Assembly: GCA_039683415.1 (NCBI GenBank)
Contig: JBDKRL010000010.1
Coordinates: 1-61,717 of the forward strand
Length of the DNA: 61,717 nucleotides
Source of the DNA: Clostridiaceae bacterium
GTDB lineage: Bacteria > Bacillota > Clostridia > Christensenellales > CAG-138
Reading direction: 5' to 3'
Part shown: positions 30,000 to 36,218 of the stretch, one piece after another
Numbering within the stretch: position 1 is the first letter of the stretch
Layout of the letters: the number at the start of each line of letters is the position of its first letter
The notes under the pieces: model-generated
What the model saw: only the letters and a program-made list of their open reading frames with translations
Databases searched by the model: none
What the model was told of the DNA's origin: nothing
Translations under genes and position numbers: made by a program

Positions 30000-30434
30000 A
30001 TGCATATGGTACTGCTTACGATCGGCATCGCGCTGCTCGCCGCGGCCATACTGATTTGGTCCGTCACGGGGCTGCTCTCGCGCCGAAAGCCCGCGGCGCA
30101 GCGCTCTTTGCCGCCTCCTCTCCCGCGGCAAGCCATACGGAACAATGCGGTGGGAGCGCTTCCTCCAGCCGGCGCGCGCCGCTCACCGCCGCCGCTCCCA
30201 CGGCAGGCAGCGGGTGGCGTACGTGCTCCAGCATACGGAAACGCAGGTTCACTCCCAAGGCAGTCGACCGTGGTTCCGCGCGTGGCCGGATTACGGAATA
30301 TTTATGACTTTCCGAAGTGCCCGTATCATCGCATTCGAAATAGTCCGGGTCAGCCTCAGGTGATCTTCTGGGACGGCCAAAAAAGGGTTTTCCGTTGCTG
30401 CAAAGGACATGAATTTTCGGGAGGGGAAGATTGA
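30000..30434 (+). CDS. Small membrane-anchored proline-rich protein with C-terminal CxxH...CCxxH zinc-binding-like module
   Basis: N-terminal TM (VLLTIGIALLAAAILIWSV), two copies of PPPLPRQA, and C-terminal FPKCPYH...FRCCKGHEF. Stop at 30432-34 is 1 nt before the E1 start. Confidence 0.5.
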   Translation: MHMVLLTIGIALLAAAILIWSVTGLLSRRKPAAQRSLPPPLPRQAIRNNAVGALPPAGARRSPPPLPRQAAGGVRAPAYGNAGSLPRQSTVVPRVAGLRNIYDFPKCPYHRIRNSPGQPQVIFWDGQKRVFRCCKGHEFSGGED

Positions 30435-30435
30435 T

Positions 30436-31716
30436 ATGAACGGCATGTTCAACCCGCTTAAGCTTTCAGAGCATCTCGCTCTGTTCGGCCATGTAAAAAT
30501 CGCTATCATCGGGGCAGGAGCCGTTGGGAGTTATCTTGCGGAATACTGCGCCAAGATGGGCGTAGGTGGCATTACGCTGGTCGATTTCGATACGTTTACG
30601 CTGGAAAACGCCGCAAAGCACTCCGGCATCATCCGTACACCGGAGGACGTTGGCCGCAACAAAGCGCTGGCAGTCGCGGAACGCACGCAGACGCTCATGA
30701 TTCCCGGCGGCAAAGCGAATGGGATCGACGCTAATCTATGCATGTTCGGGCCGATGGCGTTTTCACAGTACGACGCCGTTCTGCTGGCACTGGACAACTA
30801 CGCCGCAAAAGTCTATTTCAACCAACTCTGGCTGCAGCTGCCGCTATCAGAGCGACCGCTTTTGATCTTTGGCGGCACGTATGAGGAAATGGCGCAGGCA
30901 AACTGCCTGGACGGACACGACGCCTGTCTGCAGTGCCTGCTGGACGAAAGCTCACTTGAGAATTCCGCTGCGAGCACAAGCTGCTCCGGCCCGCAATATC
31001 GGAATATCGACGGGGAGAGTGTTGTTGTGCGCACGTCCGGGCTGGCATCCAGTATGGCGGCGCATTTGATGACGGAGCAGCTGCGGACGTTCGTAATCGG
31101 AAACTCAGATATCGCCAACAAGCGTCTTTGCTACACCGCGTATCCGAATCTGGGAATCACGTCGTCCACGCCGATGCAGCGCAGAACCTGCCCGGACTGC
31201 GCGCAGTACCATCCACCGGAAGAAATCACCCGGCTGGTGGGTACCGTTCTGGAGCGGACGCTGGGAGAACTGTTTTCGGAATTAAGCCAGCGGTTCGGGA
31301 ACGAAGAGTATGAGCTCCTCGTTCATCGGCTGATCTTTGCCGGGGTCGGGTATGGAGGTTTCATTCTGGACGACGTCTGCAAGAGCTGCGGACAACCGCT
31401 TTCTGGGGTTTATGCGCACGAAGGGCGCACATACTTTGGCGATCTGCTCTGCGAGGAATGCAGGCAAGCAGGAAACAAGGCGTTTTATGACTCTCTGCGC
31501 AAAGTTGGGACGTCGGTTCACGCATTTACGCCGCGCACTTGTTCCGAGGCATTGCTGGAGAAAACGCTTTTCGAACTGGGATACCCGCTTGGCGCATATC
31601 TCTGGACGAAACAAAGCGGCGGCGCGACCGACGCGATAGACGAAACCCCAACGTACACCTGCTTTACCTGCAGCGGCGACGCGGAGAGGATGAATACAAT
31701 CAGCATCGCGCGGTAG
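30436..31716 (+). CDS. E1-like ubiquitin-activating enzyme (ThiF/MoeB/HesA family) with C-terminal Cys clusters
   Basis: VKIAIIGAGAVGSYLAEYCAKMGVGGITLVDFDTFTLEN Rossmann/adenylation motif, with CPDC and CKSCG...CEEC zinc-like motifs. GGGAGGGGA RBS. Confidence 0.85.
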   Translation: MNGMFNPLKLSEHLALFGHVKIAIIGAGAVGSYLAEYCAKMGVGGITLVDFDTFTLENAAKHSGIIRTPEDVGRNKALAVAERTQTLMIPGGKANGIDANLCMFGPMAFSQYDAVLLALDNYAAKVYFNQLWLQLPLSERPLLIFGGTYEEMAQANCLDGHDACLQCLLDESSLENSAASTSCSGPQYRNIDGESVVVRTSGLASSMAAHLMTEQLRTFVIGNSDIANKRLCYTAYPNLGITSSTPMQRRTCPDCAQYHPPEEITRLVGTVLERTLGELFSELSQRFGNEEYELLVHRLIFAGVGYGGFILDDVCKSCGQPLSGVYAHEGRTYFGDLLCEECRQAGNKAFYDSLRKVGTSVHAFTPRTCSEALLEKTLFELGYPLGAYLWTKQSGGATDAIDETPTYTCFTCSGDAERMNTISIAR

Positions 31717-31765
31717 AGAGCAAGATGTCTTCTAATACAGCAACATTGTCAAAGGAGGAGAAATT

Positions 31766-34369: not shown

Positions 34370-34411
34370 GAGGCAGAAACGAAATTCAGACCATTTGAAA
34401 GGAGCAGAACC

Positions 34412-35551
34412 ATGTACCAATCTGTCATTCGAGATCCGGGCGGAGACCGGCTGGTTCGAATCGTACCGGACTTTGTGTGCGTCGATGGGAGCGTTCTGAT
34501 CGTTCCGGCGGATACGGTTGCCTTTTTCATCTGCAACGGGATCGTAAGCGAACCATACGGCCCGGGGCGATATACGCTCAATACGGGCATCAGCCCCTTC
34601 TTTGTACGTTTGCGCAACATTATGACGAACGGGGATCCCGCGGTTTCGGTCTCCGTTTTCTTTGTTGCAACAAGCCGCGAAACCTGCATGCCGCTCGGTA
34701 CGGGCGAGATCGTCTTTAACGAAAGGCGGTTTCAGCTTTCCATGAAAGCGAAGGCTTCTGTGAGCGTCCGCTACCGTATTTCCGATCCGAGTATGTTTCT
34801 CAAACGGCTTGTTGGCCGGTATTCCTCGCAATTTCACGAAGAGGATTTGGAACCGGCGCTTCAGTCGATGACAGCTGCGCCCGTGCGCGAGCAGCTGGGG
34901 CGGTATCTTGCGCAGATCAGCATCGCGGAGATGAACAACAATCTCACTCGAATCGGGAACAACATGGCCGCGTCGCTCGCTCCGATTTTTACGGAATACG
35001 GCATGCAACTGCGGGAAATCAGCATTGTCGGTGTAAACATTCCGGACGGGGAAATGGCGCGGCTGCAGGAACTTGAGCGTGAACATGCGCAGGGACGGGT
35101 GCAGACGGACGTTGAAAAGTACAACCTTGAGCAGGTGTATGGTACCATCGACCGCCGCACCATGGTGGAGGCGCTGACCGGCGTGCCAAGAGGACAGGCG
35201 CGTGGCGGACAACCCGCACCGCCCCCGCAGGGCGGCATGGGTGGTATGGCCGGAATGATGGCGGCGTTACCGGTACAGATGGCGCTTGCAACGCAAATGG
35301 CGGCGGCTATGCGCCCGCCGGTGGAAGAAATGACACGACAGAGCAGCCTCTTCGGCCCGCGGGAACCCGATGCGCAGGAAGGCGGCCGGCAGGATCCCGC
35401 GCCCGCAGGTGTACCGGGAGCAGCCGCGCGGCGTGTCATGAAAGTTCCGCCGCCTCTGCCCGGCCGAACGAGCGTCTGCGCTCAGTGCGGCGTGCGCGTG
35501 AGCGGCCGCCCGGCAAACTGCCCCGTTTGCGGAAGCAGGATGCAAAAATAA
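34412..35551 (+). CDS. SPFH/band-7 domain protein with Gly/Met/Pro-rich linker and C-terminal zinc ribbon
   Basis: SPFH-like N-terminal ~230 aa, then a low-complexity linker (PPPQGGMGGMAGMM), a PPPLPGR motif, and CAQCG...CPVCG. Confidence 0.55.
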   Translation: MYQSVIRDPGGDRLVRIVPDFVCVDGSVLIVPADTVAFFICNGIVSEPYGPGRYTLNTGISPFFVRLRNIMTNGDPAVSVSVFFVATSRETCMPLGTGEIVFNERRFQLSMKAKASVSVRYRISDPSMFLKRLVGRYSSQFHEEDLEPALQSMTAAPVREQLGRYLAQISIAEMNNNLTRIGNNMAASLAPIFTEYGMQLREISIVGVNIPDGEMARLQELEREHAQGRVQTDVEKYNLEQVYGTIDRRTMVEALTGVPRGQARGGQPAPPPQGGMGGMAGMMAALPVQMALATQMAAAMRPPVEEMTRQSSLFGPREPDAQEGGRQDPAPAGVPGAAARRVMKVPPPLPGRTSVCAQCGVRVSGRPANCPVCGSRMQK

Positions 35552-35567
35552 AAGGAGGAAGTATGCT

Positions 35568-36218
35568 ATGAATAAAAAGTCGCTTTTGCTGCTCGTTTCT
35601 CTTTTGGGAATTGCTGCGATTCCGCAGCTGCTGTATTTCTGGCTCGCACCGGAAGCGGTCTGCGGGAATTTCGTGTACTGGTTCGGCACGGTCTTCATTG
35701 TGCTGCATTTGGGCTTGAGCTATTTGCTGTGGCAAACATATGATACGCGGCGTGTGGCGGCGTTTGTGCTCGTTGGTTCTTCTATTCTGCTTTGCACGCT
35801 CGTTGTTGGCGCACTGTTTCTGGCAATCGGCGCTGCCGTGCGGACGGCGGTATATGCGCTTGCGGTCATTGCCGTGTTATACGTCGTGTGCTCCGGTTTG
35901 CTGATAGCGCCTCTGCTGGCAGAACCGGCGGAACACGGAAGCACAGCCAGGGACTACATCCCGTACGTGCCGCAATACAACTGCGAATCACAGCAGGCTG
36001 AAGAGGAGGAGCCGTATGCACAGAACCGCGTATTTATGCCGGTTTCGCAGCGGGAAACAGCGCCGACGCCGCGAAGTTCGACGCCGCTGACGCGGGAAAC
36101 AGCACCGTTGCCCCGCGCAGCTGCGCCGTTGACGCGGGAAACGCGGGAAACGCGGGAAACAACGCCGCTGCCGAGGCCGCGCGTGAGCAATCCGCCGCCG
36201 CTGCCGGAGAAACGCTGA
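35568..36218 (+). CDS. Multi-pass membrane protein with C-terminal RET/PLP repeat tail
   Basis: 4-5 TM helices, then RETAPLPR...RETRETRETTPLPRPRVSNPPPLPEKR. Confidence 0.5.
   Translation: MNKKSLLLLVSLLGIAAIPQLLYFWLAPEAVCGNFVYWFGTVFIVLHLGLSYLLWQTYDTRRVAAFVLVGSSILLCTLVVGALFLAIGAAVRTAVYALAVIAVLYVVCSGLLIAPLLAEPAEHGSTARDYIPYVPQYNCESQQAEEEEPYAQNRVFMPVSQRETAPTPRSSTPLTRETAPLPRAAAPLTRETRETRETTPLPRPRVSNPPPLPEKR
36089..36162 (+). repeat. Short in-frame tandem repeats (GACGCGGGAAAC x2; 9-bp CGGGAAACG x3) inside the membrane-protein gene
   Basis: Seen directly in sequence; encodes the RETRETRET tract. Confidence 0.5.

Follow-up and report, generated by a model that had tools for sequence, protein, structure and literature searches.

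Why should five different proteins encoded side by side carry the same short proline-rich peptide, in most cases at one of their ends? The question is raised by an operon in a 61,717-nucleotide stretch of contig JBDKRL010000010.1 (assembly GCA_039683415.1, a metagenome-assembled genome of a Clostridiaceae bacterium), which we refer to as the window. The operon encodes a ubiquitin-like protein (Ubl), enzymes of the E1, E2 and JAB types, a transglutaminase-like enzyme (TGase), an SPFH protein and several membrane proteins, three of its products bearing a zinc ribbon. We find that the motif in its products is highly non-random and is kept at the same sites in related operons, and we propose that PPP[L/M/I]Px[R/K] is probably a docking motif through which a membrane scaffold collects E2, JAB and SPFH, because its copies evolve in concert and because it co-occurs with the membrane/SPFH module.

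A proline motif in five proteins of one operon

The genes lie in the following order, which continues with a HerA-like ATPase and a Colicin-DNase/WHH nuclease (TM, transmembrane):

29643..29960, plus strand: ubiquitin-like protein (Ubl), motif-free
30000..30434, plus strand: small membrane protein (smTM), the proposed scaffold, with an N-terminal TM helix, a disordered linker with two motifs and a C-terminal zinc ribbon
30436..31716, plus strand: E1-like ThiF adenylating enzyme, motif-free
31766..32359, plus strand: E2/UBC-fold enzyme with a conserved Cys109, motif carrier
32401..33405, plus strand: JAB/JAMM peptidase, motif carrier
33419..34369, plus strand: transglutaminase-like cysteine enzyme (TGase), motif-free
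34412..35551, plus strand: soluble SPFH (Band_7_1) protein that has a region of low complexity plus a C-terminal zinc ribbon (35477-35530), motif carrier
35568..36218, plus strand: membrane protein with four TM helices (4-TM protein), motif carrier
36250..36897, plus strand: ZnTPR, with an N-terminal zinc ribbon, a helical TPR-like region, two TM helices and a C-terminal NPF; no PPxLP

A six-frame scan of the window returned five PPPLP and one PVPLP as the sole matches of this kind in any frame. All six lie on the plus strand between 30111 and 36206, inside five proteins of this one row of genes, and the 4-TM tail has two weaker copies:

30111..30125, plus strand: smTM, first copy, SLPPPLPRQA, in the predicted cytoplasmic linker (residues 38-42)
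30186..30200, plus strand: smTM, second copy, RSPPPLPRQA, in the same linker (residues 63-67)
32333..32347, plus strand: E2 C-terminal copy, GGPVPLPGKR followed by the stop (residues 190-194 of 197, four residues from the stop)
32416..32430, plus strand: JAB N-terminal copy, MKANMPPPLPAVHR (residues 6-10, counted from the ATG at 32401)
35447..35461, plus strand: SPFH copy, KVPPPLPGRTS, in the low-complexity tail (residues 346-350, six residues before the first CxxC of the zinc ribbon)
36192..36206, plus strand: 4-TM protein C-terminal copy, NPPPLPEKR followed by the stop (residues 209-213 of 216, four residues from the stop)
36102-36116 and 36162-36176, plus strand: weaker 4-TM tail copies, APLPR and TPLPR

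The scan agrees with an earlier, sequence-only reading of the locus, which had counted six copies in five operon proteins and had given their translations and termini correctly. An AAAGGAG Shine-Dalgarno sequence at 32383-32389 supports the JAB start at 32401. The residue at the basic position is R, R, K, R and K in five of the copies, and V in JAB.

That reading had also judged a chance origin unlikely, and the counts bear this out. The composition of the operon proteins predicts 0.003 copies, compared to the five PPPLP observed; shuffling each protein separately gave a mean of 0.007 copies and a maximum of one, and 0 of 20,000 trials reached two. The background is correspondingly empty, with no PPPLP in the 47 other open reading frames (ORFs) of the window (14,481 amino acids), although proline makes up 6.4% of the operon proteins and 3.9% of the rest. 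The six copies differ in their codons and have unrelated flanks; selection therefore acts on the peptide, and the copies do not form a DNA repeat.

The motif segments are disordered in AlphaFold2 (AF2) models, in which the predicted local distance difference test score (pLDDT) is below 50 in the E2 tail, as it is in the smTM linker apart from islands of 50-70 at the motifs. All motif tails are predicted to face the cytoplasm, because basic residues follow the smTM helix, the 4-TM protein reads as N-in/C-in and the zinc ribbons read as cytoplasmic.

Related loci, to which the L numbers below refer, came from three sources: contigs that encode E2 relatives, 17 loci retrieved with an SPFH alignment in genome and metagenome collections, and four more operons obtained via E2 representatives. 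The E2 family is rare, 5.8 billion proteins yielding 8 clusters and 1.84 billion yielding 101 representatives; no E2 relative was found in plasmid and phage collections. The loci come from metagenome-assembled genomes of Oscillospiraceae, Anaerovoracaceae and other Clostridia and from metagenomes, some of them labelled human gut, and they share a core order of Ubl (one to four copies), smTM, E1, E2, JAB, TGase, SPFH, the 4-TM protein (in some) and ZnTPR.

The same sites bear the motif in about 20 related Clostridia operons, whose proteins are 37-50% identical, and this positional conservation holds among the closer of the 101 E2-family representatives. The E2 of relatives ends in PPPLPRRRT, PPSLPARRR or PPPLPNKKADY, the JAB N-terminus reads xPLPxRRPxxPxxYPV, and the 4-TM protein ends in KPLPPRNR. 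PPPMPGRNRRC stands immediately before the SPFH zinc ribbon, and in SPFH relatives that have no ribbon the motif is itself the C-terminus (PPPMPPRNR). The smTM linker of relatives holds one to three copies. Orthologous operons thus keep the motif at the same termini. Neither of the two outcomes that the sequence-only reading had named as refuting it, a similar density in unrelated proteins and loss from orthologues, was observed.

Across 19 non-redundant related loci, a relaxed pattern gave 107 matches in the five carrier families (2.6-19 per 1000 amino acids), 0 matches in 16,011 amino acids of Ubl, E1, TGase and ZnTPR, and 1 match in 30,695 amino acids of unrelated ORFs. The logo of 87 instances has P at.53,.70 and.72 in the three leading positions, followed by L.78, M.16 or I.06 at position 0, then P, x, R.71 or K.10, R/N and R, where L/M/I at position 0 and P at +1 were fixed by the search pattern. 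The family consensus is therefore PPP[L/M/I]Px[R/K][R/N]R, and the consensus proposed earlier needs widening to PPP[LMI]Px[RK]. Some copies have a single Pro ahead of the Leu (KPLPPRNR, AVPLPTRR, RSLPRRR).

We noted several variants of E2 in the family. A natural E1-E2 fusion (among P0133, 640 amino acids, and P0132, 293 amino acids) keeps a terminal PPPLPGG, and the long tail of another E2 contains LPPRR repeated four to five times in tandem. Some operons have a second E2 paralogue upstream of the functional one (L009 3937-4533, P0004; L001/L002 2108-2700). In L009 the catalytic Cys of this copy is replaced by Ser and a terminal proline motif is lacking, and the L002 version is split into two ORFs; the paralogue is possibly an inactive variant resembling a ubiquitin E2 variant (UEV) or a decaying duplicate.

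Concerted change and the membrane/SPFH module

The sequence of the motif changes together in different proteins of one operon. In L003/L004, smTM, E2, JAB and SPFH all carry [RK]IPPPE[IA]V[RK] or close variants. In L027 (PV type), PPPVPx[H/K] is found in E2 (three copies), JAB, the 4-TM protein and one smTM copy, and in L032 the tails of E2 and SPFH carry LPPP[I/V/E/H]R. Using a table with one instance per protein, picked by position, we found that identity among copies was 0.526 within operons compared to 0.458 between operons (0/2000 permutations). With the two most aberrant clades removed, the permutation counts were 20/2000 over nine positions and 1/2000 over positions 0, +2 and +3. Such parallel drift of the motifs of different proteins suggests that these motifs have a partner in common.

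A distant operon type (L029, L030/L031) has the order E1-Ubl-E2-JAB-TGase-M50 and is without smTM, SPFH, the 4-TM protein and ZnTPR. In these loci neither the E2 tail nor the JAB N-terminus has the motif, and the JAB protein has its own C-terminal TM helix. The motif is missing where the enzymes remain without the module, and we therefore conclude that it travels with the membrane/SPFH module and not with the enzymes. In L030, a 383-amino-acid protein without a family match and an HD_4-domain protein (2327-5469) precede the operon, and an M50-like membrane metalloprotease (10178-11137) ends it, replacing the SPFH module.

The common docking peptide that the sequence-only reading had suggested thus gains from both the concerted evolution and the co-occurrence with the membrane/SPFH module. 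The binding of a partner, the identity of the receptor, stoichiometry, multivalent assembly and the biological role of the system (defence, conjugation-related or stress) are what we infer from these patterns. The motif in disordered cytoplasmic tails would tether the soluble E2, JAB and SPFH proteins to a membrane scaffold that would include the 4-TM protein and smTM, both themselves motif carriers. All copies would address one common receptor site in the membrane module, for which the zinc ribbon at the smTM C-terminus is the likeliest place, through an exposed strand, I122-x-W124-D125, in which the Trp could serve as a polyproline platform and an acidic partner for the Arg is possible. With a receptor and one to three ligands in the same chain, smTM could link head-to-tail into a multivalent lattice under or around an SPFH assembly, and the soluble carriers might join this lattice by competition through their own copies. 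Tails with several tandem copies fit an assembly based on multivalency. The activities of Ubl conjugation and deconjugation would thereby be concentrated at an SPFH membrane patch.

Receptor candidates and competing explanations

The candidate receptor site lies in the following feature:

30297..30431, plus strand: smTM zinc-ribbon domain; I122-F-W124-D125 (30363-30374) is the candidate motif-binding strand

A search found 150 smTM relatives, and AF2 was run on 121 sequences. The model has a helix at residues 2-27 and a ribbon at residues 100-140 with pLDDT >90, and it places I122-D125 on a beta-strand, on which I122 and W124 would share one face. The only linker parts above pLDDT 50 are the two motif copies, as islands at residues 36-46 and 61-68. 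The motif columns are ≥90% conserved among the 121 family members, including L66, P67 and R69 of the second copy.

IF[WY]D is present in the smTM ribbon of 13/13 operons with the LP-type motif, and the ribbon Trp is kept in 119 of 120 further family members, with Tyr in the remaining one. I-x-W-D is lost only in two altered-motif clades, through a two-residue gap in L003/L004 and through RR in L032. L032 alters 4 of the 18 positions conserved among LP-type smTM proteins (L12, I122, W124 and D125), and all four are also altered in L003/L004 (hypergeometric p=0.005). The same test gave no significant excess of shared clade-specific changes in E1, E2, JAB, TGase or Ubl, and 0/26 conserved positions of ZnTPR are altered in the motif-rewriting clade. 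A Trp platform is, moreover, the classical way of reading polyproline-II helices. The sequence-only reading had offered the TPR or zinc-ribbon proteins as adaptors; from these results the TPR-like zinc-ribbon protein is disfavoured, and the best candidate is indeed a zinc ribbon, that of smTM. We treat the smTM ribbon as a putative reader of the motif in the sense of a tentative lead, not a result.

Several observations weigh against docking and against the smTM ribbon as its receptor. The permutation test drew on a hand-curated motif table, and the pLDDT islands (50-70) at the smTM motifs could reflect conservation alone. The association between Trp and motif rests on two clades with similar ribbons (CPxC, RNxRG), which are maybe not independent. 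Asp125 is N, S, H or I in seven family members that keep PPPLPPR, the PV-type operon keeps IFWD, and the L032 smTM still has one LP-like PLPLPREKR. SPFH also has shared changes (5/69, p=0.017), including the motif Pro itself. A scan of mutual information with average product correction over the 121 smTM sequences gave no clean coupling between linker and ribbon, and was dominated by neighbouring linker columns.

Foldseek with the smTM model gave no significant match in the PDB, the top hits, at E>1, being the TFIIB ribbon and IBR/HOIP domains. We rejected a strict Asp125-Arg salt-bridge coupling, given the seven family members with N/S/H/I and an unchanged motif. Two further groups of changes were set aside: a clade-specific cluster at E1 residues 36-87, in the ATP-binding DxDxxxxxN region, was flagged by a scan that used the PE-type clade alone and was not replicated with L032 added (p=0.36), and the Ubl N43/Q47 changes in both altered clades are as expected from the divergence of the L032 Ubl (p=0.42). 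E1 as a hub for the E2 tail was downgraded, as the E1-E2 fusion keeps the motif and E1 persists in the motif-less operons; a tail that serves merely to recruit E2 to E1 is disfavoured because the fusion still ends in PPPLPGG.

If the receptor is not the smTM ribbon, it could lie elsewhere in the membrane module, in the SPFH domain or oligomer, in the zinc ribbon or helical domain of ZnTPR, or in the 4-TM protein. We take this alternative seriously, while thinking it rather unlikely. The motif co-occurs with the whole module and not with smTM alone, SPFH has the excess of positions changed in both altered clades given above, SPFH oligomers would offer many equivalent sites, and a YdjH-YdjI interaction has been reported. 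However, most of the five SPFH changes are conservative ones (R66K, E253D) and the motif itself accounts for one, ZnTPR is unchanged at its conserved positions in the motif-rewriting clade, and the 4-TM protein is missing from L003, L004, L013 and L014, which keep the motif.

The motif might instead be a recognition or cleavage site for JAB or TGase, such a site being the other role that the sequence-only reading had put forward, or a degron for Ubl modification. Two peptidase-like enzymes adjoin the carriers and some copies do contain Lys (PGKR, PEKR), but most have Arg and no Lys, and the operon type that has no motif retains JAB, TGase, E1 and Ubl. E2, JAB and the 4-TM protein would lose only 3-10 terminal residues by cleavage, to no evident purpose; TGase and JAB have no clade-specific changes that match the motif switches; and the site at which JAMM enzymes cut is after the Ubl C-terminus rather than at proline motifs. 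A processing site thus finds no support, and we regard this explanation, with the degron, as improbable.

We give still less credence to a basic proline-rich tail that acts as a transport signal for a VirD4-like ATPase or as a polybasic lipid-binding patch. Genes for VirD4-like ATPases stand beside the operon in the window, as they do in at least 8 loci, and Arg-rich C-terminal signals occur on type IV secretion substrates. But the copies are also found on integral membrane proteins, at the JAB N-terminus and in the SPFH interior, and there is no VirD4-like gene in L011, L012 and L020 (within 20 kb loci). An electrostatic patch, for its part, needs neither an invariant Leu-Pro nor prolines that form a polyproline-II helix.

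Slightly less plausible again is a translational pause, dependent on elongation factor P, through which the polyproline would tune expression or stoichiometry. PPP is a ribosome-stalling sequence and it survives in the altered clades (IPPPE, LPPPx). What is best conserved, however, is [L/M/I]-P together with the Arg that follows the Leu by three residues, and many copies have only one Pro before the Leu. A pause would leave the terminal positions and the concerted change of non-proline positions unexplained, and pausing 5 residues ahead of a stop would be of little regulatory use. Finally, a compositional artefact of proline-rich linkers, which the raised proline content of the operon might suggest, is virtually discounted by the expected counts, by the shuffles and by the conservation of positions in about 20 operons.

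Known systems and accessory genes

The consensus most resembles the class II ligands of SH3 domains (PxxPx+), with which it shares P-P-[L]-P-x-R and further basic residues; the Src SH3 class II consensus is xPPLPxR. The PxxP core is present, P standing at -2 in 70% of the 87 instances, as is the basic residue two after the second Pro (R in 71% and K in 10% at +3). Class II ligands likewise occur in disordered tails, in several copies and in many partners of one pathway. Nevertheless, no SH3, SH3b, WW, GYF or EVH1 Pfam match at E≤0.1 was found among the 20 proteins of the island (22776-43805), and no UEV-type reader was detected in the operon. The system also differs from SH3 systems in that the candidate reader is a zinc ribbon and the host is a Clostridia bacterium. 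Judged on its residues, the motif may act as class II SH3 ligands do, but we do not count it among them.

Among bacteria, the closest precedent is GltJ of Myxococcus (zinc ribbon-linker-GYF-TM), whose zinc ribbon binds a linear motif of the protein's own disordered linker and whose GYF domain binds a proline-rich sequence of a partner, forming an assembly switch (PMC11135422). smTM shares the architecture of zinc ribbon, disordered linker and TM helix. GltJ differs in that its proline reader is the GYF domain, the ligand of its ribbon is not proline-rich and it acts in gliding motility, whereas here the motif is spread over five proteins.

A second comparison is with the PspA-YdjGHI (SamGHI) module. 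YdjI/SamI of B. subtilis is a soluble SPFH protein that needs membrane partners for recruitment (PMC8581546; bioRxiv 10.64898/2026.02.06.704340). The operon SPFH shares its architecture of a soluble Band_7_1 domain, a region of low complexity and a C-terminal zinc finger, and YdjG begins with a CxxC element, as read from a primer sequence. PspA is not encoded in this operon, which has small membrane and zinc-ribbon partners as possible counterparts of YdjG and YdjH. Here the SPFH protein is joined to Ubl, E1, E2, JAB and TGase, and YdjI has no described recruitment motif.

In Bil, Bub/6E and type II CBASS (Cap2/Cap3), Ubl, E1, E2 and JAB occur together, and E2 or JAB is often fused to E1 (PMC11601596, PMC10557695). 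Physical coupling of the enzymes would be a theme that these systems and this operon have in common. As in Bil (BilABCD), Ubl, E2, JAB and E1 are found in one operon. The E1 sets the operon apart from Bil, since it is a single ThiF domain; no chain named Bil is among the 34 PDB matches of this E1. The operon does not correspond to Bub/6E, as its E2 is of the Cys type (the Bub E2 has Ser) and there is no match to DUF6527, the serine protease family of BubE. Nor does it correspond to type II CBASS, since E1 and E2 are separate genes and there is no CD-NTase. Added here are a TGase-like enzyme, SPFH, three zinc-ribbon/membrane proteins and the shared linear motif.

A short peptide common to many partners that compete for one hub site is also known from the beta-clamp-binding motif and from the C-terminal tail of the single-stranded DNA-binding protein SSB. 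These hub-docking peptides differ in that they are not proline-rich, belong to DNA-replication hubs and have carriers scattered over the genome rather than placed in one operon. A shared docking motif is thus a known principle; what is new here is its probable occurrence in an undescribed bacterial Ubl/SPFH system. Full-text literature searches found no description of this operon or motif. To our knowledge, the wiring of enzymes to a scaffold by shared short linear motifs, a hallmark of eukaryotic signalling, has rarely been documented in bacteria.

An SH3-ligand-like peptide that co-evolves across five proteins makes a compact and testable case of motif-based assembly, with the ligands and a candidate reader side by side. 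It points to an uncharacterised bacterial Ubl-conjugation family tied to an SPFH membrane scaffold. This family may represent a non-covalent alternative to the fusion of E2 or JAB to E1 in other bacterial Ubl systems, and it may inform how SPFH proteins of the YdjI/SamI type reach membranes. A bolder version of the docking proposal, attractive but doubtful, is that the zinc ribbon is a previously unrecognised polyproline-II reader and that a multivalent lattice, like those of SH3 domains and proline-rich motifs, organises E1-E2-JAB-TGase in an SPFH microdomain of a Clostridia mobile/defence island, with a private code for each operon lineage. If this were true, the operon would represent in bacteria what proline-motif signalling scaffolds are in eukaryotes, with a co-evolving reader and motif, and a zinc ribbon that acted as the reader would be a new class of proline-recognition module.

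Among the operon proteins, Pfam matches were obtained for ThiF, Prok-JAB (weak), Transglut_core, Band_7_1 SPFH and the HerA-like ATPase. The JAB protein bears an RPN11-like JAMM motif. SPFH matches PF13421 at 5e-20, has no TM segment, and contains a region rich in Gly, Met, Ala and Pro ahead of a C-terminal CxxC...CxxC. No Pfam family matches the E2-like protein, but its AF2 model (pTM, the predicted template modelling score, 0.74) matches 73 solved UBC/E2 structures at E≤1e-3; the conserved Cys109 aligns with the catalytic Cys of UBC enzymes, and tail residues 174-197 are disordered in the model. E1 has 426 amino acids with one ThiF match at residues 28-245, and its best PDB relatives are TcdA, UBA3, MoeB, ThiF and Cap2, at E≥7e-8. 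With PADLOC, the ThiF part matches 'E1-E2' models (E 1e-14); otherwise only HerA-type models are matched.

The Ubl C-terminus is Val-Ala or Gly, not Gly-Gly, and the short extensions in the window (VAAC before the stop) and in L029 (VAAEVIN before the stop) would need trimming. Ubl occurs as one to four tandem genes, and in one case as a tandem-domain protein (window; L010 4143-5700; L006 1-393; L029 1279-1620). A second conserved terminal motif, NPF, is present in most operons at the cytoplasmic C-terminus of ZnTPR (window 36868-36876, residues 207-209), as ..SNPFRQ, NPRNPFWD, NNPFI or RNPFVV, the last three running to the stop. We noted it in L002, L003, L004, L010-L012, L014, L016, L022, L023 and L027, which include an altered-motif clade; it is absent in L018/L020 and L032.

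The accessory genes of the window are as follows:

36917-39520 and 39517-40407, plus strand: HerA-like ATPase and Colicin-DNase/WHH nuclease, present in some operons
40554..43805, plus strand: ClpP-like protease, 259-amino-acid protein and VirD4-like ATPase, conserved in 6 loci
25606..29213, plus strand: upstream module present in some operons, made up of a VirD4-like ATPase that has no evident TM segment, a TPR/RNPP_C-like protein and a 251-amino-acid protein

The HerA-like ATPase is always followed by the Colicin-DNase/WHH (HNH/EndoVII) nuclease (window, L010, L011, L012, L016 and L022), which has an acidic repeat N-terminus and C-terminal domains that are 55-66% identical. They have the look of an effector pair that some operons add to the Ubl/SPFH core. 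The trio of ClpP-like protease, 259-amino-acid protein (no family match) and VirD4-like ATPase is also found in L010, L014, L016, L019 and L023, and an SPFH protein combined with a protease of the ClpP class brings stomatin/NfeD pairs to mind. Immediately upstream of the Ubl gene (25606-28442), a VirD4-like ATPase apparently without an N-terminal TM segment is paired with a TPR protein that has a weak match to RNPP_C (peptide-binding), a pair also present in L001, L013, L014, L023 and L027. No other type IV secretion genes were found among the window ORFs checked, and the VirD4-like ATPases may therefore belong to the Ubl/SPFH system rather than to a conjugation apparatus.

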